Shown here: in pieces, positions 10,016 through 57,043 of the stretch
Position numbering within the stretch: position 1 is the stretch's first letter
Layout of the letters: every line of letters starts with the position of its first letter
Source of the DNA: Piscinibacter gummiphilus
GTDB taxonomy: Bacteria > Pseudomonadota > Gammaproteobacteria > Burkholderiales > Burkholderiaceae_C
Assembly (NCBI RefSeq): GCF_002116905.1
Contig: NZ_CP015118.1
Coordinates: forward strand, 4,548,351 to 4,612,350
Direction of reading: 5' to 3'
DNA length: 64,000 nt
Position numbers and translations under genes: made by a program
Notes under the pieces: generated by a model
Told to the model about the DNA's origin: nothing
What the model saw: only the letters and a program-made list of their open reading frames with translations
The model's database searches: none

Positions 10016-10934
10016 ACTCGGGCGGCGCCACCGGCGTCGCCATGAGCAGCTCGTCGATGCGGCGGGCCACGGCCCACGCGCTGCGCAGCCGCGACTCGCG
10101 CGTGGTGCTGGCCAGGCGTGGCGTGATCTGCAGGTTGCCGATGCCGTGCAGCGGGCGGCCCTCGTCGAGGGCGCCCGGCTCCAGGCTGTCGATCCAGCCG
10201 GCGGCCATGCGGCCGCTGCGCAGTGCGTCGGCGAGCGACTTCTCGTCGAACACGCCGGAGTGGGACACGCTCACCATCACCTGGTTCGGCTTGCACCACG
10301 GCAGCAGCCGCTCGCCGATCAGGCCCTGGTAGCGCGTGAAGTAGTTCAGCTGCACGGCGAGTGCGTCGCTCGTCTCGATCAGTTCGCGCAGCGGCATGGG
10401 GGCCACCTTCCAGCGGTCCCAGACGCCGTCGCTCGCGTGCAGCGAGGGCTCGTAGCCGATCACCCGGCAGCCGAAGCCGCTCAGCATCGAGGCCATCGCG
10501 CGCGCGGCCGGCGGCATGCCGATCAGGCCCACCGTGCACGCGCCCAGCTCGCGGCCCACGCGCATGCCGTCGGCGCCCTCCACGGGCACCCGGCGCAGCA
10601 TGGAGAGGATGGCGCCGATCATGAACTCGGCCTCGGCCTGGGCGGTGGCGGTGGCGCTGCGCACCACCTCGATGCCGGCGCGCTGGCAGGCTTCGGCATC
10701 GATGTTCTCGGCGCCGCTGTTGATGCGGCCCACGGCGCGCATCATGGGGGCGAGCGGCAGGGTCTTCGCGCCGAAGGCCACGGACGCGGGGAGGATCAGC
10801 GCGCGCACGTTGCACAGGGCGAGGCGGAAGGCCTTCAGGTCCTGGGCCAGTTCGGGTGCGTAGCGCACCGTGTGCCGCGACTCGAGCCACTGCCTGACTT
10901 CCGCGTCCAGCGTGTCGACGATCAGCAAGTCCAT
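9957..10934 (-). CDS. D-isomer-specific 2-hydroxyacid dehydrogenase family protein
   Basis: [10 protein letters not shown] start; [26 protein letters not shown] is a Rossmann NAD-binding segment typical of the family. The first 43 aa of the track ORF are discarded. Confidence 0.6.
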
Positions 10935-12285: not shown

Positions 12286-12839
12286 GTCGATTCTCGCGGC
12301 GAGCCGGCCGGGGGCCACTCGAGCCATTGGGGTTCGATGCCGCGCGAGCGCAGCCAGTCGGCCACCGCCTGGCCCGTGCCGGCGGGCCAGCACTTCACCT
12401 TCTCGGGCGGCACCAGCTTGTACTCGGCCAGTTCGGGCGACAGCGTCACCTCGCCGCGCGCCACGACGTGGTACGCGATGATGACCTGGTTCATGCGCTG
12501 GAAGTCGTAGACCCCCACCAGGTTCACGGCCTCGGCGGTGAGTGCCGTTTCCTCGAACACCTCGCGGGCGATGCCCTCCTGCGGCGTCTCGCCCGCTTCC
12601 ATGAAGCCGGTGACGAGGCCGAACATCTTCTGCGGCCACGCGGCGTTGCGGGCCAGCAGCAGCTGGCCGCCCGCCTCGGGCAGCTCGATCACGGCGGCGA
12701 GCACCGGGGTCGGGTTGTTCCAGTGGGTCCAGCCGCAGGACGGGCAACGCGTGCGCTCCTTCGGGCCGCCATCCTCGACTTCGGTGATGCGCTGCAGCGC
12801 GGTGGCGCAGTTGGGGCAGAAGTGGAATGCGTGGACCAT
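12282..12839 (-). CDS. NUDIX hydrolase with N-terminal zinc ribbon
   Basis: CPNC...CPSC zinc ribbon followed by a Nudix box GLVTGFMEAGETPQEGIAREVFEETAL. Confidence 0.75.
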   Translation of the reverse strand: MVHAFHFCPNCATALQRITEVEDGGPKERTRCPSCGWTHWNNPTPVLAAVIELPEAGGQLLLARNAAWPQKMFGLVTGFMEAGETPQEGIAREVFEETALTAEAVNLVGVYDFQRMNQVIIAYHVVARGEVTLSPELAEYKLVPPEKVKCWPAGTGQAVADWLRSRGIEPQWLEWPPAGSPREST

Positions 12840-12843
12840 GGCG

Positions 12844-13767
12844 TCAGGCCGGGAAGACGCCGGTGGAGAGGTAGCGGTCGCCGCGGTCGCAGACGATGAA
12901 CACGATGGTCGCGTTCTCGACCCGCTTGGCGACTTCGAGCGCGGCCCAGCAGGCGCCCGCCGCGGAGATGCCCGCGAACAGGCCGTCCTCGCGGGCGAGG
13001 CGCCGCACCATGTCCTCGGCGTTCTCCTGGCTCACCTCGATGGTCTCGTCGATGTTCGTCGGGTCGTAGATCTTCGGCATGTAGGCCTCGGGCCACTTGC
13101 GGATGCCGGGGATGCGCGAACCCTCGCTCGGCTGCGCGCCGATCACCTGGATGGCCGGGTTCTTCTCCTTCAGGAACTTCGACGTGCCGGTGATGGTGCC
13201 GGTGGTGCCCATCGCGCTCACGAAGTGCGTGATGCGGCCGTCGGTGTCCTTCCAGATCTCGGGGCCCGTGGATTCGTAGTGGGCGCGCGGGTTGTCGGGG
13301 TTGCCGAACTGGTCGAGCACCCGGCCCTTGCCCTCGCGCTGCATCTGCTCGGCGAGGTCACGGGCGTATTCCATGCCGCCGCTGCGGGGCGTCAGCACGA
13401 GTTCCGCGCCGAAGGCCTTCATGGTCTGCGCGCGTTCGATGCTCAGGTCCTCCGGCATGATCAGGACCATGCGGAAGCCGCGCACGGCCGCGGCCATCGC
13501 CAGGGCGATGCCGGTGTTGCCGGACGTGGCCTCGATCAGCGTGTCGCCGGGGCGGATCTCGCCGCGCTCCTCGGCGCGCTTGATCATGCTGATGGCGGGA
13601 CGGTCCTTGACCGAGCCGGCCGGGTTGTTGCCCTCGAGCTTGCCGAGGATGACGTTGCCGCGCCGGTCGTTCTCCGCGCCGGGCACACGCACCAGCCGCA
13701 CCAGCGGGGTGTTGCCGATCGAGTCTTCGAGTGTCTTGTAGGTCTTCATGCGCTCTCCTGCCGCCAT
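12844..13767 (-). CDS. cysM: cysteine synthase B (O-acetylserine sulfhydrylase)
   Basis: LKLEGNNPAGSVKDRPA (PLP lysine), ITHFVSAMGTTGTITG, IPGIRKWP, CDRGDRYLSTGVF; collinear with E. coli CysM. The true start may be the internal MKTYKT at 13749. Confidence 0.85.
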   Translation of the reverse strand: MAAGERMKTYKTLEDSIGNTPLVRLVRVPGAENDRRGNVILGKLEGNNPAGSVKDRPAISMIKRAEERGEIRPGDTLIEATSGNTGIALAMAAAVRGFRMVLIMPEDLSIERAQTMKAFGAELVLTPRSGGMEYARDLAEQMQREGKGRVLDQFGNPDNPRAHYESTGPEIWKDTDGRITHFVSAMGTTGTITGTSKFLKEKNPAIQVIGAQPSEGSRIPGIRKWPEAYMPKIYDPTNIDETIEVSQENAEDMVRRLAREDGLFAGISAAGACWAALEVAKRVENATIVFIVCDRGDRYLSTGVFPA

Positions 13768-28576: not shown

Positions 28577-28690
28577 GGTCCCCGCCACAACTGCTCACCA
28601 CTCCCCCCCTTCGGAGTGGTTGACATGTTATGTCGCGAGCCCTACGCTGCAACGCATGGGGCCGCGTCGGCTCCTGCAACGAGAGGAGCC

Positions 28691-29107
28691 ATGAAACCAC
28701 TTCACGAGCAGTTGTTTCGCCTCGACGACCACCTCGGTCGCCTGATGGGCAAGGTCGCGGTGCAGCTGCAGCCCATCCCCGGCGAGGTGCCCGTCGTGCA
28801 GGTCAACATCGGCGGCCGCGACGAGCTGCCGATCTTCATCACGCGGTCCGACACGCAGATCCTCTGCCTCTGCTACCTCTGGACCGACGCCGAGGTGAAG
28901 CCCGCGCGCCGCAACGAACTGGCGCAGACGCTGCTCGAACTCAACCCCTCCGTGCCGCTGTCGGCGTTCGGTCGCATCGGTGACCGCTACGTGCTGACCG
29001 GCGCCCTCGCCATCGACGCCCCCGTCGAAGCCGTCGCGCAGGACGTCGCGGTGCTGAGCGACAACGCGCTCGACGCCCTGGACGCCCTGTCCGAGTTCCT
29101 GGAATAG
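28691..29107 (+). CDS. DUF2170 family protein (E. coli YjfI-like)
   Basis: LPIFITRSDTQILCLCYLW ... SVPLSAFGRIG ... YVLTGALAIDAPVEAV ... LSDNALDALDALSEF is collinear with the YjfI pattern (INILFTSRQMIIETFICP ... YIVFGALSL ... LVDNALDLAEI); 138 aa. Confidence 0.7.
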   Translation: MKPLHEQLFRLDDHLGRLMGKVAVQLQPIPGEVPVVQVNIGGRDELPIFITRSDTQILCLCYLWTDAEVKPARRNELAQTLLELNPSVPLSAFGRIGDRYVLTGALAIDAPVEAVAQDVAVLSDNALDALDALSEFLE

Positions 29108-29116
29108 GAGAGCCCC

Positions 29117-29830
29117 ATGTCCGTGATCAAGAGAGTGGTGACCCTGCTGCGCGGCAGCGTGCGCGAGATCGGTGAAAGCGTGGTCGACGCCAACGCCACC
29201 CGCATCTACGAGCAGGAGATCGTCGACGCGCGCCAGGCCATCGTGGCCGCCCGCAACGACCTGACGATGGTGATGGCCAAGGAGATGCAGAGCGCCCGCG
29301 AGATCGAGCGCCTGCAGCAGGAGGCCGCGCGCTACGAATCGCTGGCCGTCGAGGCGCTCGACAAGTCGCAGGAGTCGCTGGCCGAGGAAGTGGCCGGCCG
29401 CGTGGCCGCGCTCGAGGAGGAACTCGCCGGCCAGACGAAGGCGCATGCGGCCTACGCGCTGCAGGTGGTCAAGCTGAAGGACCTGGTGCGCACCGCCGAG
29501 CAGCGCATCCGCGAACACGAACGCGAGATCGGCATCGCGAAGACCACCGAAAGCGTCTACCGCGCCACCCGCTCCATCTCGGAGAACCTGGGCAGCGGCG
29601 GCTCGCGCCTGCTGAACGCGCGCGAGTCGCTCGAACGCATCAAGCAGCGGCACGAGGAACTGGCCGACCGCATGACCGCGGCCGACCAGCTGGAAGGCGA
29701 ACTGGGCCATGGCGCACTCGACCGCAAGCTGCGCGAGGCGGGCATCGGCGAACAGGCCGACCGCCAGCGCGACGCGATGGCGCGCATCCGCGCCCGCGCG
29801 GCCACGCGCACGGCTCCCGCGGCCGAATGA
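29117..29830 (+). CDS. PspA/IM30 family protein (YjfJ-like)
   Basis: All-helical and coiled-coil-rich, with an N-terminal MSVIKRVVTLLRGSVREIGESVVDANATRIYEQEI typical of PspA/IM30/Vipp1-family starts; 237 aa. Confidence 0.8.
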   Translation: MSVIKRVVTLLRGSVREIGESVVDANATRIYEQEIVDARQAIVAARNDLTMVMAKEMQSAREIERLQQEAARYESLAVEALDKSQESLAEEVAGRVAALEEELAGQTKAHAAYALQVVKLKDLVRTAEQRIREHEREIGIAKTTESVYRATRSISENLGSGGSRLLNARESLERIKQRHEELADRMTAADQLEGELGHGALDRKLREAGIGEQADRQRDAMARIRARAATRTAPAAE

Positions 29831-30171
29831 CCGTGCGGCAGAAGCCGGCCCGCTGGACCTCGTCCGACGAGGCGATCCGGGCCGTCCAGGTCGCCTTCGA
29901 CGTCGAGGAGGCCGTGCTGCAGGCGGTGCGCCAGGCGGCGTTCGAGAACCACCTCTCGAACTCCGACCAGATCCGCAAGCTGCTCGACCTGCCCACGGCC
30001 GAGAAACCGAAGCGGCCGCGCCTGACCGTGTCGCTGAGCCCGGCCGACTATGAGCTGCTGGCGAAGCGCTACGGGCTGGCGGGCGACGACCGGCTGACCA
30101 TCAAGGAGCGGGTCACCGCGGAACTCATCGCCTTCGCCGGACAACCGGACGAGGGCACGCCGGCGCCATGA
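29827..30171 (+). CDS. hypothetical protein, possibly a tandem ribbon-helix-helix fold
   Basis: Two segments with a beta-strand then helix pattern (VQVAFDVEEAVLQAVRQAAF and LTVSLSPADYELLAKRYGL) suggest CopG/Arc-like RHH units. Its start overlaps the previous stop. Confidence 0.4.
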   Translation: MTVRQKPARWTSSDEAIRAVQVAFDVEEAVLQAVRQAAFENHLSNSDQIRKLLDLPTAEKPKRPRLTVSLSPADYELLAKRYGLAGDDRLTIKERVTAELIAFAGQPDEGTPAP

Positions 30172-30228
30172 CCGGCATCACGCGCGGCAGAACACAGAAC
30201 AGCGCGCGGAACCACGAGGGAGCAGGGA

Positions 30229-30858
30229 ATGGGAAACTTCTACGGGGCGGCCTTCGGCTTCCCCACGGCGATCTACACGGCGCTGCTGGGCATGGTGCTC
30301 TTCTACTGGGTGCTGGCCGTCGTCGGGGTCGTCGACTTCGACAGCAGCGGCATCGACCTCGAACTGCAGGCTGACGCCAGCGTCGACGACCTGGGCACCC
30401 TCGCCGGCTTCATCGTGGCCTTCGGCCTCGGCGGCGTGCCGTTCTCGGTCGCCATCAGCCTGCTCGTGCTGATCTCGTGGACCGTGTGCTGCCTGATCGC
30501 GATGTGGCTGCTGCCCCTCGTGCCCACGCTGCTCCTGCAGCTCGCCGCCGGCACCGCCGCCCTCCTCGGCAGCTTCGCGCTCGCGCTGCCCGCCACGGCC
30601 GTGAGCCTGCGGCCGCTGCGCCGCCTGTTCGTGACCCACGGCGCCGCCACCAACGCATCGCTCGTGGGGCAACGCTGCAGCGTGCTGACCAGCCGCGTCA
30701 CCGACACCTTCGGGCAGGCCGAGGTGCCGCGCCGCGGCGCCCCGCTCAACATCGACGTGCGTGCCGCCGAGCCCAACGTGTTCACCCGCGGCACCGCCGC
30801 CCGCATCGTCGACTACGACCCCGCCACACAACGCTATTCGATCGAACCCGAGGTGTGA
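30229..30858 (+). CDS. NfeD/YqiJ-like membrane protein (DUF1449-type flotillin partner)
   Basis: Three to four N-terminal TM helices and a C-terminal soluble OB-like segment (VGQRCSVLTSRVTDTFGQAEV...RIVDYDPATQRYSIEP). Architecture and position directly upstream of a flotillin match E. coli yqiJ-yqiK. Confidence 0.7.
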   Translation: MGNFYGAAFGFPTAIYTALLGMVLFYWVLAVVGVVDFDSSGIDLELQADASVDDLGTLAGFIVAFGLGGVPFSVAISLLVLISWTVCCLIAMWLLPLVPTLLLQLAAGTAALLGSFALALPATAVSLRPLRRLFVTHGAATNASLVGQRCSVLTSRVTDTFGQAEVPRRGAPLNIDVRAAEPNVFTRGTAARIVDYDPATQRYSIEPEV

Positions 30859-30932
30859 ACGCGCCCGCGCGCCACACCACCCCATCCATCGCTGTCACGC
30901 ATTCCAACCAATAAAGCTGAGGGAAGAAATTC

Positions 30933-33068
30933 ATGGAGCCCATCTTCATCGCCGTCGGAGTCCTGGCCCTGCTCATCCTGGGCCTGTTCGCCATGTTCGC
31001 CAAGTTCTACCGCAAGGTGGAGCAAGGCTACGCGCTCATCGTGAACACGCTGCGCGCCGACCCCGACGTCACCTTCACCGGCCACATGGTGTACCCCATC
31101 ATCCACAAGGCCGAGCTGATGGACATCTCCGTGAAGACCGTCGAGATCGACCGCTCGGGCAACCAGGGCCTGATCTGCAAGGACAACATCCGCGCCGACA
31201 TCAAGGTGAAGTTCTTCGTGCGCGTGAACAACACGGCCGACGACGTGCTGAAGGTGGCCCAGAACATCGGCTGCGAGCGCGCGTCGAACCACGAGACGCT
31301 CGAGGAGCTGTTCTCGGCCAAGTTCTCCGAAGGCCTCAAGACCGTCGGCAAGAAGATGGACTTCGTGGACCTGTACCAGGACCGCGCCCACTTCCGCGAG
31401 GAGATCCTGAAGGCCATCGGCGGTGACCTGTCCGGCTACAAGCTGGACGACGCCGCCATCGACTACCTCGAGCAGACGCCGCTGCACAAGCTCGATTCGA
31501 ACAACATCCTCGATGCCCAGGGCATCCGCAAGATCACCGAACTCACCGCGGTGGAGCACGTGCGCACGAACGAGCTGCGCCGCAACGAGGAGATGCAGAT
31601 CAAGAAGAAGGACGTCGAGGCGCAGGAGACGCTGCTGGAGCTCGAGCGCCAGCAGTCCGACGCCCAGTCGCGCCAGAAGCGCGAGGTGGCCTCGGTGCGC
31701 GCGCGCGAGGAAGCGGAGACCGCCAAGGTGCAGGCCGAGGAGCAGGCCAAGACCGAGCTCGCCCGCCTGAACACCGAGCAGGTCGTGTCGGTGCAGCAGG
31801 AGAACGTGCTGCGCGAGAAGGAAGTGGCCGAGAACAACCGCAAGCGTGCGGTGGCCATCGAGGAGGAAAAGGTCATCCGCGCCCGCCAGCTCGAGATCGT
31901 CGCGCGCGAGAAGGAAGTGACGCTGCAGCAGATCGACAAGGAAAAGGCGGTCGAGGTGCAGAAGAAGGCCATCGCCGACGTGATCCGCGAGCGCATCGTC
32001 GTCGAGCGCACGGTGGCCGAGCAGGAGGAGGCGATCAAGGACGTGCGTGTGGTGGCCGAGGCCGACCGCACGAAGAAATCCACGATCATCATGGCCGAAG
32101 GCCAGGCCGAAGAGAAGCTGGTGCTGGAGGTGAAGGCCGCCGAGGCCCAGGAGCGCCGCGCTCGCCACAAGGCCACCGAGGAGCAGACGCTCGCCGAGGC
32201 CCGCTTCAAGGTCGCCGAGCGTGACGCCGAATCGAAGAAGCGCGAGGCCGAAGGCCTCACCGCCATCGCCGCCGCCCCGGGCCTGGCCGACGCCCGCGTG
32301 CTGATCGCCAGCGCCGACGCGAAGGAGAAGCAGGGCCTCGTCGACGCCAAGGTGGAACTCGCGCGCGCCGAAGCGCTGCTGAAGACCGGCCAGGCCACCG
32401 CCACCGTGGTGGAAGCGACCGCCATGGCGGAAGCCTCCGGCCTGCGCGCGAAGCTCGAGGCCGAGGCGCAGGGCAAGGAAAAGCTGGGCATGGCCGAGGT
32501 GTCGGTGCGTGCCGCCGATGCGGACGCCGCGCTGAAGTCGGGCCAGGTCGACGCCCAGGTGGTCGAGGCCAAGTTCAACGCCGAGGCGAAGGGCCTGCGC
32601 GAGAAGTTCGAGGCCATGAAGGCCATGGGCCCGGACACCCGCGCGCACGAGGAGTACCGCATGCGCCTCGAGATGGCGCACGTCGAGACGCTCAAGGGCA
32701 TCGATGCGCAGACCGCCATCGCGAAGGACCAGGCCGAGGTGCTGGGCACGGCGCTCGCCAAGGCCAACATCGACATCGTCGGCGGCCAGGGCGACTACTT
32801 CGAGAGGTTCGTCAACGCCATCTCGATCGGCAAGAACATCGACGGCACCATCGCGAAGAGCAACACGCTGCAGGTCGCGTTCAAGGACCAGCTGGCCGGC
32901 AACCGCGACGTGATCGAGGACGTGCGCACGGTGGTGGGCGCGCTCGGCGACTCGACGGCCGAGCTGAAGGACCTCACCGTCTCGGCCCTGCTGGGCAAGG
33001 TGATGCGCGACGGCAGCGAGTCGCAGAAGGCCGCGCTGCAGGGGCTGCTGAACGGGTTCAAGCAGTAA
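30933..33068 (+). CDS. flotillin/SPFH (band 7) family protein, YqiK-like, extended (711 aa)
   Basis: N-terminal TM anchor MEPIFIAVGVLALLILGLFAMFAKFYRKV; SPFH core (ALIVNTLRAD ... GLICKDNIRADIKVKFFVRV); a very long Ala/Glu/Lys-rich coiled-coil (EA-repeat) region; flotillin C-terminal tail. Confidence 0.85.
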   Translation: MEPIFIAVGVLALLILGLFAMFAKFYRKVEQGYALIVNTLRADPDVTFTGHMVYPIIHKAELMDISVKTVEIDRSGNQGLICKDNIRADIKVKFFVRVNNTADDVLKVAQNIGCERASNHETLEELFSAKFSEGLKTVGKKMDFVDLYQDRAHFREEILKAIGGDLSGYKLDDAAIDYLEQTPLHKLDSNNILDAQGIRKITELTAVEHVRTNELRRNEEMQIKKKDVEAQETLLELERQQSDAQSRQKREVASVRAREEAETAKVQAEEQAKTELARLNTEQVVSVQQENVLREKEVAENNRKRAVAIEEEKVIRARQLEIVAREKEVTLQQIDKEKAVEVQKKAIADVIRERIVVERTVAEQEEAIKDVRVVAEADRTKKSTIIMAEGQAEEKLVLEVKAAEAQERRARHKATEEQTLAEARFKVAERDAESKKREAEGLTAIAAAPGLADARVLIASADAKEKQGLVDAKVELARAEALLKTGQATATVVEATAMAEASGLRAKLEAEAQGKEKLGMAEVSVRAADADAALKSGQVDAQVVEAKFNAEAKGLREKFEAMKAMGPDTRAHEEYRMRLEMAHVETLKGIDAQTAIAKDQAEVLGTALAKANIDIVGGQGDYFERFVNAISIGKNIDGTIAKSNTLQVAFKDQLAGNRDVIEDVRTVVGALGDSTAELKDLTVSALLGKVMRDGSESQKAALQGLLNGFKQ

Positions 33069-33074
33069 CCCGGC

Positions 33075-36000
33075 ATGGCGGACACCTCCTCCACCGACAC
33101 CACCGAACGGATGGTGGCCGACAGCGGCTCCTACGAGCTGCTGAAGAAGCGCCTCGCCGACCAGGGCGGCACGCTCCTCGAACAGGCCCGCGCGCTCAAC
33201 ACCGCGCGGCTGGCCGAGTTCGGCCGCTCCGAGCAGGCGATGATCCTGCGCACGCGGGCACGCACCGAGAACAACTGCGTCGCCCGCGACCTGGTCGTCA
33301 TCGGCGACCTGTTCCTGTTCGGCTACAACGTCTTCATCGGGCTGCGCAAGGAAACGGCCGTGGAGGACGTCTTCGCGCTGTACCGGCTGCCCGCGGCGGA
33401 CGGCGGCGACGAACTCGAATCGGTGCCGTCGGCCGGCACCTTCCTCGACGACCCGCGCTTCCTCGCCGACTTCCGCGAGCTCTACACCTACTACAAGCAG
33501 GCCACGCTGACGCAGCTGCGTGTCACGCACGACAAGCTGCTCGCGGCGTTCCAGATCGGCCAGCAGGTCAGCGACGTGCGGGTGTTCCGCTGGTCCATCG
33601 AGAACGACGGGGCGATCCGCTACACCGACAACCGCGGTGAACGCGACATCGCGCTGCCCCCGAGCCACGACTTCGAATGGACGGTGTGCACGCGCGAGGA
33701 CCACGTGGGCGGCAGCTTCCCCCACATCAACATCCTCGACACGGTGTTCGTCGAGACGCTCGGTGGCGACCTCACCGTCAAGATCGAGAACAACACCGAG
33801 ACCGGCCACGGCATCTACAGCGAGCCGGTGAGCGACCCCACGCAGTCGCTCACCGACGCCGAGGTGGCCTACGCGAAGCTCGGGCTGCTGATCCTGCTGC
33901 GGGTCAAGCCGTACCGCGAGACGCAGACGCGCTACCTCGTCTACAACACCCGCACACAGCAGGTGCAGCGCATCGACGCCATCGGCGCCTCGTGCATCCA
34001 GCTGCCGGAGGACCACGGCATCGTCTTCCCCGGCGGCTGCTACCTGCAGTCCGGCGAAACGAAGACCTTCGACCTGCCCGGCGAACTGGTGGACGCGCTG
34101 CGCTTCAAGCGCATGGTGCGTTCGCCGAACGGCGAGGACGTGCTCTACATCTTCTCGCAGCCGGCCAGCGGCCACTACGGCCTCTTCACGTACAACCTGA
34201 TCGAGAAGGCCCTGAGCCCGCCGATCGTCGTGAACGGCTACGCCCGGCTGCCCGACGGCCGCATGCTCGTGTTCCAGGCCGACCGCGGCGAACCCGTGCG
34301 TGTGCACCCGATGCAGCTGTGGCAGACGCCCTTCGCGCACGAGGAACACGCGAGCCGCCAGCCCCGGGGCACCGGCTTCTTCGGCCGCGTGGGCAACGCC
34401 GACCTCGTGCGCGGCGTGTCCGACCTGATGGGCATCGCCCGGGCCGTGCGCGAGCAGGTGCCCACCCGCGCCGCGTACGACGACCTGATCCGCCAGTGCA
34501 CCCGCCTGGCCGACGCATACTTCTGGCTCGACGCGCCCGAGGCCGGCGGCCTGCACACGACGCTGCGCGCCATCGCCGACGCGTCGCGCAACACCCTCGC
34601 CGAGTTCGAGAAGGTGGACGCCATCCGGCGCGACACCGCCCGCGCGCTCACGCAGGCCGAAGGCGCCCAACGCGCGCTCACCACCGACATCGCCAGCATG
34701 CTCTGGCGGCGTCCCGACGATTTCATGCAGGCGCTCGGCCGCCTGCGCGAGCAGCGCGGCCAGCTGCAGATGCTCCGCGAGCTGCGGTACGCCGACCTCG
34801 ACCGCATCGGTGCGATGGACGCCGAGCTCGTGGCGGAGCAGCAGCGCGTGGGCGAGCGCGCGCTGCAGTTCCTCGCGGACGAGCGGGCCTTCGACGGCCA
34901 CCAGAAGGAACTGGCACGCCTCGCCGCCGAACTGCCTCAGGCCGGCACCACGTCGCTGCTGGCCCAGGTGCTGGAAACGCTCGACGGCCTCGCCGCCGGT
35001 GTCGACGTGCTCACCGAACAGCTGGGCAACCTGCCGGGCGGCGACGCCGTCGTCCGCACCGCCATCCTCGACCGCATCTCGCTGCTCTACACCGAGATCA
35101 ACCGCCTGCGCGCCGACGCGCGCAACCGGCGCAAGACCCTCGGCTCGAGCGAGGCGGCCGCCGAGTTCGGCGCGCAGTTCAAGCTCTTCGGCCAGGCGGT
35201 CGACAACGCCCTCGAGTTCGCCGACACGCCCGAGAAGTGCGACGACACCCTCACCCGCCTGCTGGCCCAGCTGGAGGAACTGGAAGGCCGCTTCGCCGAA
35301 CAGGAAGGGTTCCTCGCCGACATCGCCGACAAGCGCGAAGCCGTGGTGGAAGCCCTGTCGGCCCGACGCCAGACGCTGGTCGACGCCCGGCAGCGCCGCG
35401 CACAGGCGCTGGTGGACGCGGCCGGCCGCATCCTCGACGGCGTGCCCCGCCGCGTGTCGCAGCTGGCCGACCTCGCGCAGGTGCACAGCTACTTCGCCGC
35501 CGACCCGCTGCTCGCGAAACTGCGCAAGCTGATCGAGGACCTGCGGGCGCAAGGCGCGGCCGTCGCCGCCGACGACCTCGACACGCGCCTCAAGACCGCC
35601 CGCGACTCGGCACTGCGCGCCGTGCGCGACAAGAGCGAACTCGTCGCCGACGACGGCAACACGCTGCGCCTCGGCCGCCACGCCTTCACGATCAACCGCC
35701 AGCCGCTCGATCTCACGCTGGTGCCGAAGGACGACGGGCTCGCCTATCACCTGTCCGGCACGGACTACCACGCGCCCGTGGACGAGCCTCGCCTCGCGCC
35801 ACTCGCCGCCTACGGGTCGCGGCCGCTGGTGTCGGAGAGCCCGTCGCTCGCCCGCGCCGAGTTCCTCGCCGGGCGCTTCCTCGAAGCCGCGCAGCGGGGC
35901 GAGGTGTCGCTCTCGTGGGACGAGTTGTCCCGCTTGGCCGGCGACGGCGCCGAGTCGCATGCGGCGCTGCTGTCGGCGCTGCGCCAGTACGCTGCCCCCC

Positions 36001-38234
36001 GCTACCAGGAGGGCTACCAGAAGGGTGTGCACGACGAGGACGCGGCCCGCGTGCTCGCCGCGCTGGTCTCGATGCAGGCCCAGGCCGGGCTGCTCGCCTG
36101 GGGCCCCACCGAGCGCGCGCTGGCCCAGCTCTACTGGCACCACGGCCGCTTCGTCGCCGAACGCGAGTCGCTGCAGCGGCGTGCCCGCGCGGCGATGCAG
36201 ATGCGCGAGCTGTTCGGGACTCGCGACGCGATGGTCCGGCTGGAGGCCGACATCGCACAGGCCCTGTCGGACTTCGCCCGCGAAGTGCTGCCCGACCTGC
36301 TGCCCGAGGACGGCGCCACCGACCGCGCGCAGCAGCTGGCCACGCTGACCCGACAGTCCGCCACGTACTTCATCCACCAGCTCGCGAGCGAACACGGTGC
36401 CGAAGCCTGGGTGCTGAGCGGCGCGGGCCAGGACCTGGCCGACGCGCTGTCGCGCGAGCTGGAACGCGGCGGCCGCCTGGCCGCCTGGTCGGCCGACCTC
36501 GACGCCGCCACCGCCCCCGAACGCTGGCGCCTCGCCCGCGACTGGGTGGGGGCGTTCGCCCGCACCCAGTCGCCCGACGCACTCGCCTGGATCGACGACG
36601 CCGCCATGGTGTTCGCCCTCCCCGGCCCCCGCGCGCGCATCAACGCCACCCTCGACGTCGCGCTGACCGGCCTGCTCGCCGAACACCCGCGCGTGGCCGG
36701 CGGCCAGCTCGCGCTGAACCTCAACGACTTCTGGCGCCGCTACCTGCACCACACCGGCCACGACGTGCCCGGCTTCGAAGCGCTGCAGGCGCTGCGCCAC
36801 GAGCTGATCGCGAAGGAGAAGACGCGCCTGCGGCTGACGCAGTTCCAGGCGAAGCCGCTGTCGACGTTCGTGCGCAACCGGCTCATCGACGAGGTGTACC
36901 TGCCACTCGTGGGCGACAACCTGGCGAAGCAGCTCGGCGCGGCCGGTGAAGGCAACCGCACCGACCGCATGGGCCTGCTGCTGCTCATCTCGCCGCCGGG
37001 CTACGGCAAGACAACGCTGATGGAGTACGTGGCGGACCGCCTGGGCCTGATCTTCGTGCGCATCAACTGCCCCGCGCTCGGCCACCAGGTCACGAGCATC
37101 GACCCGGCCACCGCGCCCAACAGCGCCGCGCGCCAGGAACTCGAGAAGCTCAACCTCGGGCTCGAGATGGGCAACAACGTGATGCTGTACCTCGACGACA
37201 TCCAGCACACGAACCCCGAGTTCCTGCAGAAGTTCATCGCGCTGGCCGACGGCACGCGCCGCATCGAAGGCGTGTGGAACGGCGAGACCCGCAGCCACGA
37301 CCTGCGCGGCAAGCGCTTCGCGGTGGTGATGGCGGGCAACCCGTACACCGAGTCGGGCGACGTGTTCAAGATCCCGGACATGCTGGCCAACCGCGCGGAC
37401 ATCTACAACCTGGGTGACGTGCTGGGCGGCAAGGAGGCGATCTTCGCGCTGTCGTACATCGAGAATGCGCTCACCGCGAACCCCGCGCTGATGCCGCTCG
37501 CCTCGCGCGACCCGCAGGACGTGCACCGCCTCGTGCGCCTGGCCTCGGGCGAGGACGTGCCGTCGAGCACGTTCACGCACGCGTACAGCGCGGCTGAACT
37601 GGAAGAACTCACCGCGCTGATGCAGCGGCTCTTCCGCGCGCGCGACCTGCTGCTCAAGGTCAACCTCGCCTACATCGAGTCGGCCGCGCAGCAGGATGCC
37701 TACCGCACCGAGCCGCCGTTCAAGCTGCAGGGCAGCTACCGCAACATGACGAAGCTCGCGGGCAAGATCACCGCGCTGATGCGCGACGACGAACTCGACG
37801 CGCTGCTGCGCGACCACTACCGCGGCGAGGCGCAGACGCTCACGACCGGCGCGGAGGAGAACCTGCTCAAGCTCGCGCAGCTGCTGGGCCGCCCCACGGC
37901 CGACGAGGACAGGCGCTACCGCGACATCCGCGACGAGTTCGTCCGGCGCCGCAAGCTGGGCGGCGACGACACCGACGGCAGCACGCGCATCGCCAGCACC
38001 CTCCTCGACGTGGCCCGCGCGGTCGACGGCCTGAAGCCGGAGGCGCCGAACGACGAGGGCCGGCGCATGGCCGACGCGCTGCTCGAGTTGTCGATCACGT
38101 ACCGCAAGATCATGGTGCCGCTGATCGCCGCCACCGAACACCGGCTGAAGCTCGACAGCTCCATCCGCGACGAGGTCGAACGGGTCGGCCGCGCGCTGGA
38201 GGACGTCAAGCGCAAGACCTCGCCGAAGGCCTGA
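33075..38234 (+). CDS. giant multidomain protein (1719 aa) with C-terminal MoxR/AAA_5-like AAA+ ATPase domain
   Basis: Walker A LLLISPPGYGKTTLMEY, Walker B VMLYLDDIQH, sensor-1 region FAVVMAGNPY (NP after sensor 1 is typical of MoxR/AAA_5). Long coiled-coil/helical central region. The N-terminal 500 aa match no motif I recognise. Start lies 7 nt after the flotillin stop. Confidence 0.75.
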   Translation: MADTSSTDTTERMVADSGSYELLKKRLADQGGTLLEQARALNTARLAEFGRSEQAMILRTRARTENNCVARDLVVIGDLFLFGYNVFIGLRKETAVEDVFALYRLPAADGGDELESVPSAGTFLDDPRFLADFRELYTYYKQATLTQLRVTHDKLLAAFQIGQQVSDVRVFRWSIENDGAIRYTDNRGERDIALPPSHDFEWTVCTREDHVGGSFPHINILDTVFVETLGGDLTVKIENNTETGHGIYSEPVSDPTQSLTDAEVAYAKLGLLILLRVKPYRETQTRYLVYNTRTQQVQRIDAIGASCIQLPEDHGIVFPGGCYLQSGETKTFDLPGELVDALRFKRMVRSPNGEDVLYIFSQPASGHYGLFTYNLIEKALSPPIVVNGYARLPDGRMLVFQADRGEPVRVHPMQLWQTPFAHEEHASRQPRGTGFFGRVGNADLVRGVSDLMGIARAVREQVPTRAAYDDLIRQCTRLADAYFWLDAPEAGGLHTTLRAIADASRNTLAEFEKVDAIRRDTARALTQAEGAQRALTTDIASMLWRRPDDFMQALGRLREQRGQLQMLRELRYADLDRIGAMDAELVAEQQRVGERALQFLADERAFDGHQKELARLAAELPQAGTTSLLAQVLETLDGLAAGVDVLTEQLGNLPGGDAVVRTAILDRISLLYTEINRLRADARNRRKTLGSSEAAAEFGAQFKLFGQAVDNALEFADTPEKCDDTLTRLLAQLEELEGRFAEQEGFLADIADKREAVVEALSARRQTLVDARQRRAQALVDAAGRILDGVPRRVSQLADLAQVHSYFAADPLLAKLRKLIEDLRAQGAAVAADDLDTRLKTARDSALRAVRDKSELVADDGNTLRLGRHAFTINRQPLDLTLVPKDDGLAYHLSGTDYHAPVDEPRLAPLAAYGSRPLVSESPSLARAEFLAGRFLEAAQRGEVSLSWDELSRLAGDGAESHAALLSALRQYAAPRYQEGYQKGVHDEDAARVLAALVSMQAQAGLLAWGPTERALAQLYWHHGRFVAERESLQRRARAAMQMRELFGTRDAMVRLEADIAQALSDFAREVLPDLLPEDGATDRAQQLATLTRQSATYFIHQLASEHGAEAWVLSGAGQDLADALSRELERGGRLAAWSADLDAATAPERWRLARDWVGAFARTQSPDALAWIDDAAMVFALPGPRARINATLDVALTGLLAEHPRVAGGQLALNLNDFWRRYLHHTGHDVPGFEALQALRHELIAKEKTRLRLTQFQAKPLSTFVRNRLIDEVYLPLVGDNLAKQLGAAGEGNRTDRMGLLLLISPPGYGKTTLMEYVADRLGLIFVRINCPALGHQVTSIDPATAPNSAARQELEKLNLGLEMGNNVMLYLDDIQHTNPEFLQKFIALADGTRRIEGVWNGETRSHDLRGKRFAVVMAGNPYTESGDVFKIPDMLANRADIYNLGDVLGGKEAIFALSYIENALTANPALMPLASRDPQDVHRLVRLASGEDVPSSTFTHAYSAAELEELTALMQRLFRARDLLLKVNLAYIESAAQQDAYRTEPPFKLQGSYRNMTKLAGKITALMRDDELDALLRDHYRGEAQTLTTGAEENLLKLAQLLGRPTADEDRRYRDIRDEFVRRRKLGGDDTDGSTRIASTLLDVARAVDGLKPEAPNDEGRRMADALLELSITYRKIMVPLIAATEHRLKLDSSIRDEVERVGRALEDVKRKTSPKA

Positions 38235-38239
38235 CCACC

Positions 38240-38932
38240 ATGGAACTTCTCCTGACCCAGATCGAACTGTCGATCGCCGACGAGCGCCTGAGCGACGACG
38301 AGAAGCGCGCCCTCACGCAGGCGCTGCGCCAGGCGTCACCGCCCGAGGAAGGGCTGCGCCAACTGCGCAACCGCGCGTTCGACCTCGTGCGCGAGCGCCT
38401 CGCGGCGTCGCCTTCGCCCGACGACGTGGCCGGCCTGCTGAAGTGGCTCGAGGGTGTCGTGCGCGCGCTGGACGTGGGCCGCGCGCCACAGGGCACGCCG
38501 GTCGCGTCGGCCTGTTTCAGTCCCGGCATGGCCTGCCTGCAGGCCATCGTCGACCGCCTGCGTGCGGCGCGGCGCCAGGCCGACCTCTGCGTCTTCACGC
38601 TGTCGGACGACCGCATCACGGCCGAGGTGCTGGCGGCCCACGCGCGCGGCGTGGCCGTGCGCATCGTGACCGACAACGACAAGGAGTTCGACGCCGGCAG
38701 CGACATCGCGCAGCTGCGCCAGGCCGGCATTCCCGTGGCCGTCGATCGCACCGACGCGCACATGCACCACAAGTTCGCGCTGTTCGACGGCACGTGGCTG
38801 CTCAACGGCAGCTACAACTGGACGCGCAGCGCGGCGCAGGTCAACGAGGAGAACCTCGTGGTCCAGAACGACCCCGGCCTCGTGCGCCAGTTCCAGGTGC
38901 AGTTCGACACCCTCTGGAAACGACTCCACTAG
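38240..38932 (+). CDS. phospholipase D-like protein with a single HKD motif (Nuc-like putative nuclease)
   Basis: HMHHKFALFDGTWLLNGSYNWTRSA is a canonical HxK(x)4D(x)6GSxN motif. Only one copy in 230 aa, as in dimeric Nuc/BfiI-type PLD nucleases. Confidence 0.75.
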   Translation: MELLLTQIELSIADERLSDDEKRALTQALRQASPPEEGLRQLRNRAFDLVRERLAASPSPDDVAGLLKWLEGVVRALDVGRAPQGTPVASACFSPGMACLQAIVDRLRAARRQADLCVFTLSDDRITAEVLAAHARGVAVRIVTDNDKEFDAGSDIAQLRQAGIPVAVDRTDAHMHHKFALFDGTWLLNGSYNWTRSAAQVNEENLVVQNDPGLVRQFQVQFDTLWKRLH

Positions 38933-38941
38933 GACCCGCCC

Positions 38942-39745
38942 ATGGCACGACCGGAATTCAACTGGAAACTTCCCCCCGAGATCACGCAGCGGCTCGGCCA
39001 TGACAGCTACGGCGCGCAGCGCGCCATCCACGAAGGCGACCACCTGCTCGTGGTGCTGCACGAGCCACCGGTGAACGAGGGCAACGAACGCGAGCACCGC
39101 GTGTTCCTGCGCGGCCCCGATGGCGCATGGCGCTTCCAGGGCGCGGAACACGGCCAGCACATGATGGCCGACCTGCTGACCCGCTACGAAACGCTGCTGG
39201 GGCAGGCCGAGCAGCAATACGCGTCGGCCGACAACGCCGACGACCTGTTCCCGCTGCTCGACCGCCTGCTGCCCACGAGCCGCGCCGCGGTCAACCTGCG
39301 CGATGCGCTGCAGCAGGCCCGGGACCGCGTCAAGGAAGACCGGCTGCTCATCACGTGGCGCGACCGCGCGGTGGACGTGGCCCGCGGCTTCGAACTGCTG
39401 CTGGCGAACGCCCGGCTCGCGCTCGACTACCGCCTCGCGAAGCAGGCCGAGGCGCAGACCCAGGCGGCGCTGGCCGGCACCCGCGCCCAGCTCAAGCTCA
39501 ACACCATCGCCGCCCTCACCTTCCCGCTGATGACGGTGGCCGCGGTGTTCGGCATGAACCTGCACCACGGGCTGGAGAACCAGGCGGGGTGGCTGTTCTG
39601 GGCGGTGTTCGCGGCCGGGCTGGCGCTGGGGCTGGTGGTGAAGTCGTGGGTGCGCGGAGCCCCGCCGCCTGCGCCGGTGAAACCCGGCGGCACGCGAAAT
39701 GCACTCGGCAAGAAGGCGAGCCCCCGTGCACGGAAAACCGTCTGA
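38942..39745 (+). CDS. membrane protein with CorA-like GMN motif (two C-terminal TM helices)
   Basis: ...LTFPLMTVAAVFGMNLHHGLENQAGWLFWAVFAAGLALGLVV: TM1, then GMN, then a short loop, then TM2, exactly as in the CorA pore. The soluble N-terminal domain is 200 aa, shorter than canonical CorA. Confidence 0.6.
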   Translation: MARPEFNWKLPPEITQRLGHDSYGAQRAIHEGDHLLVVLHEPPVNEGNEREHRVFLRGPDGAWRFQGAEHGQHMMADLLTRYETLLGQAEQQYASADNADDLFPLLDRLLPTSRAAVNLRDALQQARDRVKEDRLLITWRDRAVDVARGFELLLANARLALDYRLAKQAEAQTQAALAGTRAQLKLNTIAALTFPLMTVAAVFGMNLHHGLENQAGWLFWAVFAAGLALGLVVKSWVRGAPPPAPVKPGGTRNALGKKASPRARKTV

Positions 39746-39749
39746 CGGC

Positions 39750-40358
39750 ATGCCGGTCGTCGAGCGCCCGTTCTTCAACGTCCAGGTGTTCGCGGCCCCG
39801 CTCGACGAACTGGTGGCGAGGCTGTGCGCCGTGCCGCTGCGCGGCAAGGTCGCCCGCACCACACCGTTCGTCTTCCCGACTCAGCCCTACCACCAGGCGC
39901 CGGAGGATCCGCCGATGCTGCTGTGGACTCCATCGTGCGTGCCGGGCCTGACCGCATTCATGCCAAATGTGGGCTCCGGCTGCTATTTCATCGCTGCCTA
40001 TGCGGCCGAACGCCTGCGCATCGCAACGCTGCAGCTCCGCAGCACCGTTTCCGACGCCGAGTGGCCGATCAACGAACTGATCGCACACGAAGGCGGCGTC
40101 GAGCGGCGCATGGTCCGCGCGATGCGCGACAGCCCCCGCTGGGATTTCTGCGCGGTCGGCGATCCGCTCGCGATCGAGACCCCCTCGATGTATTCGGCCC
40201 GCCGCATCCGTGACCGCTTCCACCGCGTCGCCCTGCTCGACGCGGCGGAGCGTTGGGGTGCGCCACTGCGCGACCCGGCCTTCTGGCGCACCGACCGGAC
40301 GGCGATGACCTTCAGCAGCGACGGGATCCTGCGGCACGAGCTGGCCCGCATCGAGTGA
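39750..40358 (+). CDS. hypothetical protein (last gene of the operon)
   Basis: Start 5 nt after the previous stop; 202 aa of balanced composition. No motif recognised. Confidence 0.45.
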   Translation: MPVVERPFFNVQVFAAPLDELVARLCAVPLRGKVARTTPFVFPTQPYHQAPEDPPMLLWTPSCVPGLTAFMPNVGSGCYFIAAYAAERLRIATLQLRSTVSDAEWPINELIAHEGGVERRMVRAMRDSPRWDFCAVGDPLAIETPSMYSARRIRDRFHRVALLDAAERWGAPLRDPAFWRTDRTAMTFSSDGILRHELARIE

Positions 40359-40372
40359 CCGCGTCGGCCGCT

Positions 40373-41248
40373 TCAGGCCGCCCAGGCTTCGTTCAGCAGT
40401 TCCCGGAAAAGCACCGACAGCCGCGGCTCCGGATCCTCGCGTTCGGCACGTGACGGAACCAGGGTTTCGAGGCGAGCCAGCTCCTGCTCGATGAACCGCT
40501 GGATGGGCGCGATCTGGGGCGACAGCCCGAGCTCCGGGGTGCGGCGCTTCAACACCAGCAGGTCATCGATGGCTTCCCGCAAGCCTTCGACATCCTGGAT
40601 CGTTTCGAGCAGACGTTCGAACTCGATGGGCGCCGGCTGTTGCCGGCGCTCGAGCCAACGGACCGACAGCAACGGGCGAAGGACGTAGAAGTATTTCTTC
40701 AGGGGCACCTGCTCGGCTTGCAGGTACCCGCGGAAGTTCGTCTTGGCCATGCTGCGGTAGTGGTAGATGCCGCGCTCGACCGAATAGACCTCGGGCAGCA
40801 ATGCCCGGGCTCGGGCCGCGAAGCCACCGCGGCTCTCGTACACCAGGGGCGACTGCACCCACTCGACGAAACCCGGGTTCGACACCCGGAACAGGCGCAG
40901 CGCCTTGCGAAGGTCCCACCCGTTGATGTCCATGTCGTCGACGATGGGGTACTCGATGACGTCGCGTTGTTCTTCCAGCCCCACGGACAGATACCACTCC
41001 GGGCGGTTCACGTAGATGAAGCGCGCGTCGAAGTCGCTGTTGGGCGACGGAAAGCCCCAGGCCCGGCTGCCCGACTCCACGGCGAGCAGGACCTTGACGT
41101 CATGCTCCGCCTCGGCCCCGCGAAGCCGCTGGCGGATCTCCTCGCGCACCGCGAGTGGAACGTTCGTATCGTCAGATGGGGAGTTCGGGGCCATGCCGCT
41201 GATTCTGCCTTCGATGTCCACAACGCCCACGTCGCGCGGCGCCACCAT
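40373..41248 (-). CDS. nucleotidyltransferase-fold protein (COG3541-like)
   Basis: LLAVESGSRAWGFPSPNSDFDARFIY is the minimal NTase signature G[SG]x(9-13)Dh[DE]. Start may be the internal MAPNSP at 41194. Confidence 0.65.
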   Translation of the reverse strand: MVAPRDVGVVDIEGRISGMAPNSPSDDTNVPLAVREEIRQRLRGAEAEHDVKVLLAVESGSRAWGFPSPNSDFDARFIYVNRPEWYLSVGLEEQRDVIEYPIVDDMDINGWDLRKALRLFRVSNPGFVEWVQSPLVYESRGGFAARARALLPEVYSVERGIYHYRSMAKTNFRGYLQAEQVPLKKYFYVLRPLLSVRWLERRQQPAPIEFERLLETIQDVEGLREAIDDLLVLKRRTPELGLSPQIAPIQRFIEQELARLETLVPSRAEREDPEPRLSVLFRELLNEAWAA

Positions 41249-55768: not shown

Positions 55769-57043
55769 TCAGTACCGGCCCGTGGCGCCCGCCACCTTCA
55801 GGTACAGGCGTGCGCACCACGCGACCCAGCGGCGGCGCAGCATGCCCTGCACGCCGGTGGGGTACGCGCGTTTCGACGGGTCGATGGCGCTCGACGCGGC
55901 CACGGCGCGGTCGAAGGCCTCGGCGAGCGACCGGGTGAACGCCGCGTCGCGCACCACCACGTTGGCCTCCAGGTTCAGCAGCAGCGACAGCGGGTCGATG
56001 TTGGAGCTGCCCACGGTGGCCCATTCGTTGTCGACGAGCGCCACCTTCGCGTGCAGGAAGGCCGGTGTGTATTCGTAGATATGGACCCCCTCGGCGAGCA
56101 TCTCGTCGTACAGCGCGCGCGCGGCCAGCGCCGCGATGCGGTAGTCCACCTTGCCCTGCAGCAGCAGCCGCACGTGCACGCCGCGGCGCGCGGCCTGGCG
56201 CAACACGCGGCGGAAGGCGCGGCCCGGGTAGAAGTACGGAGAGACGATGTCCACGCGTTCACGCGCCTTGCGGATCGCGTCGATGTAGCTGCGTTCGATG
56301 GCACGGCGGCGGCGCAGGTTGTCGCGCAGCACGAAGGCCGCGCGCACCGGCGGCAGGCCGGCCACGTCGGGCCCCGTGCCGGGCGGCGCCATGCGCAGGC
56401 GCTTCATCAGGCGGCGGGCCCGGGCCACCGGCTCCGCGCCGCGGGCGAGGGTCGCCAGCTCGCGGCCGAAGTGACTGCCGAGCACCGCGCGGTGGTACAG
56501 CGCCCGCACGGCCTGCTCGATCGGGGCGACGATGGGGCCCTTCATGCGCACCGCGAAGTCGAGGCGCGGCGCTTCGCTCCAGCCGTGCACCTGGTCGTAG
56601 CGGTCGTCGAGGAGGTTCACGCCGCCGACGAACGCGACGTTGCCGTCGACCACGCACAGCTTCTGGTGCAGGCGGCGCAGCTGGCCGGGCTGGAACCAGC
56701 TCCACCAGCGGTCGAGTGGACGGAACACCGCGATGTGGACGCCGGCCGTGGCCAGCGCCTCACGCAGCACGGGCATGTCGACACGGCAACCGAAACCGTC
56801 GAGCAGCACGCGCACACTGACCCCTCGCCGCGCGGCATCGGCCAGCGCGCGCGTGACCTCCTTCACCAGGCCCTCGTCGGTGTAGATGTAGGTGGCGAGC
56901 CAGATCTCCCGGCGCGCCGATGCGATGGCCTGCACCATCGCCGGGAAGAGTTCGTCGCCGCCCTGCAGCAGCCGGGCCTCGTTGCCGCCACTGTACTGGG
57001 CGCGGACGGCAGCGCGGGTGAGGGCCGTGTCGGCGGACCTCAT
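55769..57043 (-). CDS. clsB: cardiolipin synthase B (two-HKD PLD superfamily)
   Basis: Two HKD motifs, HQKLCVVDGNVAFVGGVN and LHAKVALVDNEWATVGSSNID; 424 aa. It is the 3-prime third of track ORF 55769..59596. Confidence 0.8.
   Translation of the reverse strand: MRSADTALTRAAVRAQYSGGNEARLLQGGDELFPAMVQAIASARREIWLATYIYTDEGLVKEVTRALADAARRGVSVRVLLDGFGCRVDMPVLREALATAGVHIAVFRPLDRWWSWFQPGQLRRLHQKLCVVDGNVAFVGGVNLLDDRYDQVHGWSEAPRLDFAVRMKGPIVAPIEQAVRALYHRAVLGSHFGRELATLARGAEPVARARRLMKRLRMAPPGTGPDVAGLPPVRAAFVLRDNLRRRRAIERSYIDAIRKARERVDIVSPYFYPGRAFRRVLRQAARRGVHVRLLLQGKVDYRIAALAARALYDEMLAEGVHIYEYTPAFLHAKVALVDNEWATVGSSNIDPLSLLLNLEANVVVRDAAFTRSLAEAFDRAVAASSAIDPSKRAYPTGVQGMLRRRWVAWCARLYLKVAGATGRY

Follow-up and report, generated by a model that had tools for sequence, protein, structure and literature searches.

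A single-HKD phosphodiesterase and a compact CorA-like protein as a putative accessory tail of a PspA-flotillin-AAA+ operon in Piscinibacter gummiphilus

A gene for a nuclease-like phospholipase D (PLD) protein that is followed at once by a gene for a CorA-like pore raises the question of whether the two form a defence module or serve the upkeep of the cell envelope. Such a pair (38240-38932 and 38942-39745, plus strand) is found in a stretch of 64,000 nt with a GC content of about 70% from Piscinibacter gummiphilus (assembly GCF_002116905.1, contig NZ_CP015118.1, positions 4,548,351 to 4,612,350), hereafter called the window, to which all coordinates refer unless a locus is named. A first-pass annotation, made from the sequence alone, had suggested that a nuclease and a pore provide a defence system with its output here, be it cell death or ion flux. 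We favour another reading, to which we give a probability of roughly 0.5: the two genes would be the accessory tail of a phage shock protein (PSP)-type operon devoted to membrane stress and remodelling.

The operon and its two last genes

The pair closes an eight-gene plus-strand operon (28691-39745, with gaps between genes of -4 to 74 nt) that encodes, in this order, a YjfI/DUF2170 protein, PspA, a small protein, a YqiJ-like protein, a flotillin-like protein, a DUF3686 AAA+ ATPase, the PLD protein and the CorA-like protein. An operon made of CesT/Tir(YjfI)-PspA, Band-7-flotillin, YqiJ-YuaF and a novel AAA+ protein, with an occasional PLD, has been described by Ravi et al. 2024 (mSystems, PMC11237479). 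The locus of the window resembles it in gene content and order, in its DUF2170-PspA dyad, in its giant AAA+ protein (DUF3686), which has a coiled coil and a propeller, and in the occasional HKD hydrolase. The first-pass annotation was thus right to place the pair at the tail of an ATPase operon. Its cell-death reading, however, is not supported, because this operon corresponds to the described YjfI-PspA/YqiJ/flotillin/DUF3686 AAA+ envelope-stress operon; the lack of defence genes around it and the solitary relatives of both proteins, detailed below, point the same way. It is rare for a bacterial ESCRT-III-like protein, a flotillin-like protein and a dedicated AAA+ ATPase to share one locus, as they do in this operon. 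The earlier description (Ravi et al. 2024, PMC11237479) covers the operon with its PLD; it never mentions CorA and does not identify the hydrolase as PLD6/Zucchini-like. Three points appear to be new here: that the hydrolase is PLD6-like, that a compact CorA-like family exists and that a member of this family, or TelA, was recruited to the operon tail.

Both tail open reading frames (ORFs) are genes under selection rather than chance ORFs, since each product has many full-length homologues in which the motif residues are invariant. Their third-position GC, 0.93 for the PLD gene and 0.90 for the CorA-like gene, is like that of the neighbouring genes, to be compared with 0.64-0.77 for the antisense ORFs, and it confirms both reading frames. 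The second gene does follow closely on the first, as the first-pass annotation had seen, but the spacing is 9 nt and not 10: the PLD gene stops with TAG at 38930-38932 and the next ATG stands at 38942. Overlapping this stop codon is an AGGA that precedes the ATG of the CorA-like gene by 7 nt.

Two predicted protein families

The motif H-x-K-x4-D-x6-G-S-x-N occurs once in the 230-residue PLD protein, at residues 176-193 (HHKFALFDGTWLLNGSYN), which bears out the single HKD motif reported earlier, and H176, K178, D183, G190, S191 and N193 are invariant in 15 homologues. Pfam PLDc_2 matches with E=1.5e-30 (106 bits for a cut-off of 27). A phmmer search against solved structures places human PLD6 (E=1.4e-28) and its mouse counterpart (E=5.4e-27) ahead of Nuc (E=6.7e-10), and 148 residues can be aligned with human PLD6 at an identity of about 40%. 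MitoPLD/Zucchini (PLD6) is therefore its nearest solved relative in sequence, and the protein is predicted to be a cytosolic single-HKD phosphodiesterase of the Nuc/Zucchini type. The earlier distinction between a Nuc-type enzyme and a two-HKD lipid enzyme is thereby upheld and sharpened towards PLD6, and the ClsB gene that had been recognised elsewhere in the window, at 55769-57043, is indeed one (minus strand, NCBIfam ClsB 336.6 bits for a cut-off of 281).

The family is large and well conserved: of 2,989 matches, the best 120 have a full-length identity of 65% or more, and one, from Piscinibacter gummiphilus, is 100% identical. Common to its members is an N-terminal domain of about 85 residues, in which many positions are invariant. 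In the AlphaFold2 monomer model (predicted local distance difference test score, pLDDT, of 81), this domain forms four helices (2-81), after which comes the PLD core (about 88-230). The N-domain is charged, with an isoelectric point of 4.9 compared with 6.2 for the core. Several features set the protein apart from PLD6/MitoPLD: it has a soluble four-helix domain in place of the N-terminal membrane anchor of PLD6, it is encoded in a bacterial gene context and it does not conserve the Cys-Pro-Cys...His stretch, of which C117 alone aligns. In PLD6, this stretch binds zinc. Lipid PLDs have a hydrophobic pocket, unlike the charged groove of single-HKD nucleases. Overall charge was considered as a discriminator between nuclease and lipase and proved uninformative, as the aligned fragment of human PLD6 is also net acidic (hand count). 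Whatever its substrate, a PLD6-like bacterial enzyme would offer a simple system for addressing the cardiolipin-versus-RNA question on an enzyme of the MitoPLD/Zucchini type.

The product of the next gene (267 residues) ends, as previously proposed, in two transmembrane segments (TM1 and TM2) with a GMN motif and a loop between them, carried on a short non-canonical soluble domain. GMN occupies residues 204-206, and hydrophobic windows span 186-207 and 214-237. The AlphaFold2 monomer model (mean pLDDT 88.7) is CorA-like: a four-stranded sheet (27-65) and two helices (71-95 and 99-129) precede a very long helix (134-206) that ends in GMN, followed by a loop with the conserved E212, by TM2 (helix 216-237) and by a basic tail. 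With this model, the best 50 Foldseek matches in the PDB are all CorA, ZntB, CmaX or Mrs2 (probability 1.00, about 13% identity, best E=1.7e-7). The protein shares with canonical CorA/ZntB/Mrs2 (PF01544) the two C-terminal transmembrane segments, the GMN that closes TM1, the TM1 proline, the long stalk helix, the basic tail containing a tryptophan and the overall fold. In contrast to canonical CorA, its cytosolic part has about 180 residues instead of about 260-290, the alpha/beta domain is reduced to the four-stranded sheet and sequence similarity is confined to the pore. Indeed, the family profile aligns to Thermotoga CorA (TmCorA) across TM1-GMN-TM2 only (E=0.005), and the PF01544 score of the window protein (20.5 bits) is below the gathering threshold of 27; a PF01544 match is precomputed for many of its homologues.

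Across 47 homologues, GMN, the TM1 proline and the loop glutamate are all kept, and seven arginines of the cytosolic domain are invariant (R17, R27, R50, R114, R127, R140 and R148). An exhaustive profile search retrieved at least 642 clusters at 50% identity (E<=1e-3) and no canonical CorA protein. Nearly all of the best 150 listed clusters are shorter than 300 residues, for a family size of about 250. The short cytosolic domain, which had been taken for a truncation, is the conserved state of the whole family, hence the name compact. As judged from these alignments and the model, the protein is a predicted channel from a separate, compact branch of the CorA superfamily and not the product of a truncated gene. 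It would represent an undescribed branch of a well-studied channel superfamily, with a GMN pore and a novel arginine-rich cytosolic domain. One metagenomic member, P0233 (434 aa), has an extra N-terminal region of about 194 residues with no significant Pfam match, due either to a gene fusion or to an ORF that was called too long.

We also considered a similarity between the PLD N-domain (26-52) and the CorA-like stalk (123-149). The compared segments read LRNRAFxLVR and RDRAVExAR (LRQ..LRNRAFDLVRE and LQQ..WRDRAVDVARG); they cover 27 columns with an hhalign probability of 9%, and the resemblance was treated as chance.

Linkage and possible role of the pair

When one genome of each species was scanned with the PLD alignment, 552 loci were obtained, the best 80 of which were analysed. 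The PLD gene lies directly 3' of the DUF3686 ATPase gene in 66 of these 80 loci, and the same gene order is found in Variovorax and about 60 other genomes. Within genera, the operon occupies a fixed syntenic site, and its AAA+ protein is 67-83% identical across genera in Burkholderiales and Rhodocyclales. The channel gene adjoins the PLD gene in 32 of 65 informative operons and is missing from the other 33; outside Variovorax, the figures are 14 operons with it and 32 without (hand count). Its adjacency to the PLD gene is seen in two taxonomic orders, Burkholderiales and Rhodocyclales, and extends to at least 14 non-Variovorax lineages, the alternative gene order (AAA+, CorA-like, PLD) being that of loci L041 (9197-9919) and L084 (9219-9929). 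The flank downstream of the operon is conserved within genera, and the channel gene behaves there as a clean insertion or deletion (L049 versus L068; L074 versus L073). The channel is a dispensable add-on to the operon. A substitute gene was sought in the channel-less operons and discarded, the downstream ORFs being unrelated or spurious. Among loci L006-L085, which are mostly from Variovorax, the channel is present in 29 of 43 operons with the YjfI-PspA dyad and in 1 of 12 abbreviated operons, a difference that is confounded by phylogeny. In a further locus, L103, an ATPase match lies upstream of the channel gene with no PLD match, and the contig ends 139 nt past the channel.

Each gene also occurs by itself. 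About eight PLD loci lack the ATPase, and Xenophilus and Permianibacter have a solitary PLD gene, N-domain included, whose product is 66-69% identical and which is located among ordinary genes. Solitary CorA-like homologues are found in Comamonas, in Lampropedia and on several metagenomic contigs. In metagenomic CorA-like loci, a PLD gene stands upstream in 15 of 54 informative cases, all with at least 50% identity to the window protein, and is missing in 39; below 45% identity, it is found in none of 25 loci. No conserved neighbour shared by the solitary CorA-like genes was found. The wider compact family is clearly free-standing, and, in Burkholderiales and Rhodocyclales, one of its subclades has apparently joined the operon at the 3' end. 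In a neighbour-joining tree without support values, one solitary clade falls inside the operon-linked sequences and another outside.

These data bear on one alternative, namely that the gene of an ordinary divalent-cation channel landed 3' of the operon in a single lineage and is just co-transcribed, with no specific coupling. A family that is mostly free-standing and has no conserved partner, a gene that is gained and lost freely with the operon left undisturbed and a channel whose evolution outpaces that of the other operon genes (51-60% identity versus 68-73% for the AAA+ protein) would all be expected from it. Yet the adjacency persists in both taxonomic orders and in at least 14 lineages other than Variovorax, two loci have the channel gene within the operon, 3' of the AAA+ gene and 5' of the PLD gene, and the 9-nt gap with a Shine-Dalgarno-like sequence over the PLD stop codon suggests translational coupling. 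The enrichment in PspA-containing operons also argues against it, within the limits of its phylogenetic confounding. Overall, we consider a lack of coupling quite unlikely. That a CorA-like gene was repeatedly recruited to a membrane-stress operon suggests that membrane damage and Mg2+ homeostasis may be connected.

As an accessory tail of the membrane-stress operon, the pair could work as follows. Upon damage to the inner membrane, PspA and a flotillin/YqiJ scaffold would assemble on the lesion, and the AAA+ ATPase would remodel or recycle these PspA/flotillin assemblies. The PLD protein would be brought to the lesion through its N-domain and would cleave a phosphodiester there. We slightly favour as its substrate an anionic phospholipid head group, cardiolipin or phosphatidylglycerol being converted to phosphatidic acid (an activity first ascribed to MitoPLD); single-stranded nucleic acid would be almost as likely on homology grounds. 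Finally, the CorA-like pentamer may adjust the flux of Mg2+ or of other divalent cations during membrane stress.

Several points weigh against this model. The cardiolipin hydrolase activity of MitoPLD is contested. The characterised single-HKD relatives (Nuc, NucT, BfiI and Zucchini) are nucleases with a charged groove, and no hydrophobic or transmembrane window that could serve as a membrane anchor was found anywhere in the PLD protein. Residues 16-58 of its N-domain (window 38285-38413) give a sub-threshold match to Pfam EAD1 (E of about 0.007-0.008, in two of five family members), EAD1 being an 'effector-associated domain' of conflict systems. DrmC and DpdK provide the closest profiles of the defence library, and their alignments cover most of the protein. 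On the side of the channel, the distant compact family member P0300 lacks GMN. In the operon, the terminal slot after the PLD gene is variable in a manner that resembles modular defence systems. Lastly, in the literature on DUF3686, flotillin-AAA+ operons and bacterial MitoPLD homologues, Ravi et al. 2024 alone was relevant and no experimental work was found.

The variability of the terminal slot is illustrated by Vibrionaceae. Vibrio campbellii and Photobacterium have the same operon, with a flotillin-like protein, an ATPase and a PLD that are 34%, 41% and 45% identical to those of the window, respectively. The slot after the PLD gene is variable because, in Vibrionaceae, a TelA-family gene located 16 nt 3' of the PLD gene (Pfam E=2.4e-78) takes the place of the CorA-like gene; it spans 12694-13752 of locus L096 (Vibrio campbellii chromosome 2) and 9757-10773 of locus L097 (Photobacterium sp. 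GJ3). TelA is the 'toxic anion resistance protein' family, an envelope-stress protein family. In one metagenome-assembled genome (Candidatus Aalborgicola), a 1,074-aa ORF resembling a P-loop nucleoside triphosphatase (NTPase) lies directly 3' of the PLD gene (L035:10926-14150); it is the sole neighbour with a defence-like look.

Another alternative is a defence or abortive-infection output, in which the AAA+ protein, the flotillin and PspA sense the perturbation of the membrane by a phage, the PLD acts as a nuclease on nucleic acid of the invader or of the host and the opening of the CorA-like pore causes the cell to depolarise or flood. Besides the nuclease relatives of the PLD, its weak PADLOC matches to DrmC, DpdK and MkoC, the sub-threshold EAD1 and the variable terminal slot, this view draws on the giant NTPase with a propeller sensor-like domain in the operon and on CorA-family proteins that are proven effectors of type III CRISPR systems and toxic when expressed alone (PMC10600005). 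The PLD protein is of similar size to DrmC of DISARM and to DpdK, and the DrmC class I profile spans residues 16-225, including part of the N-terminal extension. However, the scores remain far under the cut-offs (33.5 versus 133 bits and 36 versus 100 bits), and PADLOC found no other DISARM or Dpd genes. With PADLOC-DB 2.0, no system-level match was obtained: besides the sub-threshold PLD matches and trivial P-loop matches, there was nothing for the other six proteins. Scans with profile libraries recovered no signal synthase and no cas gene among the genes of the operon and its flanks. The adaptor logic of EAD1 predicts the same domain in the AAA+ ATPase, and none was found there by hhalign or by Pfam up to an E-value of 10.

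The distribution of the genes further weakens the defence reading. The CorA-like gene is dispensable, and its slot is taken in Vibrionaceae by a gene of the TelA stress protein family, which speaks for a benign, housekeeping character. The operon is held at a fixed syntenic site within genera, its 1719-aa protein is well conserved across genera (the 67-83% identity given above) and the neighbouring genes of the window are metabolic. Relatives of the CorA-like protein number 0 on 72,556 plasmids and 0 in 2.9 million viral contigs, and the sole viral-contig match to the PLD protein is a distant PLD. Neither gene is thus carried by phage contigs, and no PLD orthologue resides on a true plasmid: the full-length orthologues of the plasmid collection are confined to two Vibrionaceae secondary chromosomes, the other plasmid matches listed being Nuc-like with 27-40% identity. 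Moreover, both genes occur alone without a controller, and solitary occurrence in ordinary chromosomal contexts is unexpected for toxic effectors that need one. We therefore regard a defence function as unlikely, and the locus serves as a warning for annotation, in that a 'nuclease-like PLD plus CorA-like pore' pair is not always a defence effector module.

A CorA-type pore gene also stands beside a phosphodiesterase gene in type III-B CRISPR, where the CorA effector is accompanied by an NrN/DEDD phosphodiesterase (Chi et al. 2023, PMC10600005), and this case inspires a further alternative. By analogy with NrN-CorA, the CorA-like pore might be gated by a phosphodiester ligand that the PLD makes or destroys and that binds the arginine-rich cytosolic domain; this ligand could be phosphatidic acid, a lipid head group or a nucleotide. 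For the CorA effectors of CRISPR, an obligate pairing with a ligand-degrading phosphodiesterase is reported (PMC10600005), the cytosolic domain of our protein has seven invariant arginines and the PLD and channel genes are tightly adjacent in either order. The two situations nevertheless differ in several respects. The CRISPR protein has a cytosolic domain of about 430 residues that binds SAM-AMP (S-adenosyl methionine-AMP) and a DHH or DEDD enzyme as partner, whereas the partner in the window is an HKD enzyme; by profile scans, the operon and its flanks have no cas10, no signal synthase and no NrN, DEDD or SAM-AMP lyase partner; and the channel of the window is optional, with solitary relatives. 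In addition, half of the PLD-bearing operons have no channel, and most family members have no nearby PLD, yet they keep the same conserved arginine motifs. The gating logic would therefore be intrinsic to the CorA-like family and not dependent on the PLD, which makes such a ligand-gated pair improbable.

The accessory-tail reading has a bolder version, in which MitoPLD has its prokaryotic counterpart in the PLD6-like enzyme. Working with the PspA/flotillin/AAA+ repair machine, this enzyme would turn cardiolipin into phosphatidic acid where the membrane is damaged and would thereby gate the CorA-like channel in the lineages that have one. We regard it as a long shot. If true, gating through the arginine-rich domain by the lipid product, or by another phosphodiester under the control of the PLD, would couple lipid damage to Mg2+ flux and would provide a lipid- or ligand-gated CorA outside the CRISPR context.

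The other genes of the operon and its flanks

Ahead of the operon, a candidate sigma-70-type promoter (28620..28648, plus strand; TTGACA, 17 nt, TACGCT) was read by eye and is only inferred; at its stringency, the consensus promoter scan found none for the operon. A sigma-54/PspF-type promoter was rejected: there is no sigma-54 site upstream of the operon, and the window has fewer matches than its shuffles. The first gene (28691..29107, plus strand like all the genes of the operon) has the ribosome-binding site GAGAGGAG before its ATG at 28691 and encodes the YjfI-like DUF2170 protein (Pfam DUF2170, E=7.1e-26), a gene that is conserved upstream of the PspA gene in related loci. YjfI/DUF2170 was placed in the CesT/Tir-like chaperone superfamily by Ravi et al. 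2024 (PMC11237479). The second gene (29117..29830) encodes a PspA/IM30 protein of the YjfJ type (Pfam PspA_IM30, E=1.6e-34, 119.9 bits for a cut-off of 33.9); PspA is the bacterial ESCRT-III-like membrane-remodelling protein. The start of the third gene (29827..30171; third-position GC 0.94) overlaps the pspA stop by 4 nt. Its product, a conserved protein of 114 residues, has no family match in the profile libraries and is found at the same position in related operons with 61-81% identity.

The fourth gene (30229..30858) encodes a 209-aa membrane protein with a hydrophobic N-terminal half and without a Pfam match, whose position is conserved in more than 60 loci. From synteny with the operon of Ravi et al., it is probably YqiJ/YuaF, the NfeD-like partner of flotillin. 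It precedes the gene of the 711-aa flotillin-like protein (30933..33068), which has an N-terminal transmembrane segment, an SPFH-like region and a long coiled coil; the NCBIfam FloT match is weak (E=0.0031) and there is no Pfam match, but size, position and conservation fit (66-90% identity in related operons and 34% in Vibrionaceae). The 1719-aa AAA+ ATPase (33075..38234) contains DUF3686 (residues 34-483, Pfam E=1.3e-193), DUF7902 (605-687, E=4.1e-22) and an AAA domain (about 1293-1430, E=6.7e-8), and its stop codon lies 5 nt before the start of the PLD gene. Variovorax operons have an extra 181-aa gene between the flotillin-like and AAA+ genes (L001:3490-4035), with a faint zinc-ribbon match; it is missing in the window, where these two genes are spaced by 6 nt (33068-33075).

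Downstream of the pair, the terminator scan gave nothing convincing 3' of 39745. An orphan ORF of 202 residues (39750..40358, plus strand; third-position GC 0.87 in frame) starts 4 nt after the CorA-like stop codon. By its third-position GC, it looks coding; it has 2 homologous clusters in 5.8 billion proteins, no family match and no equivalent in any related locus. Its membership of the operon, as a possible ninth gene restricted to this lineage, is uncertain. Convergent with the operon end, a nucleotidyltransferase gene on the minus strand (40373-41248) encodes RlaP ('RNA repair pathway DNA polymerase beta family', Pfam E=3e-83). It is not at that position in the Variovorax loci and is probably an unrelated neighbour.

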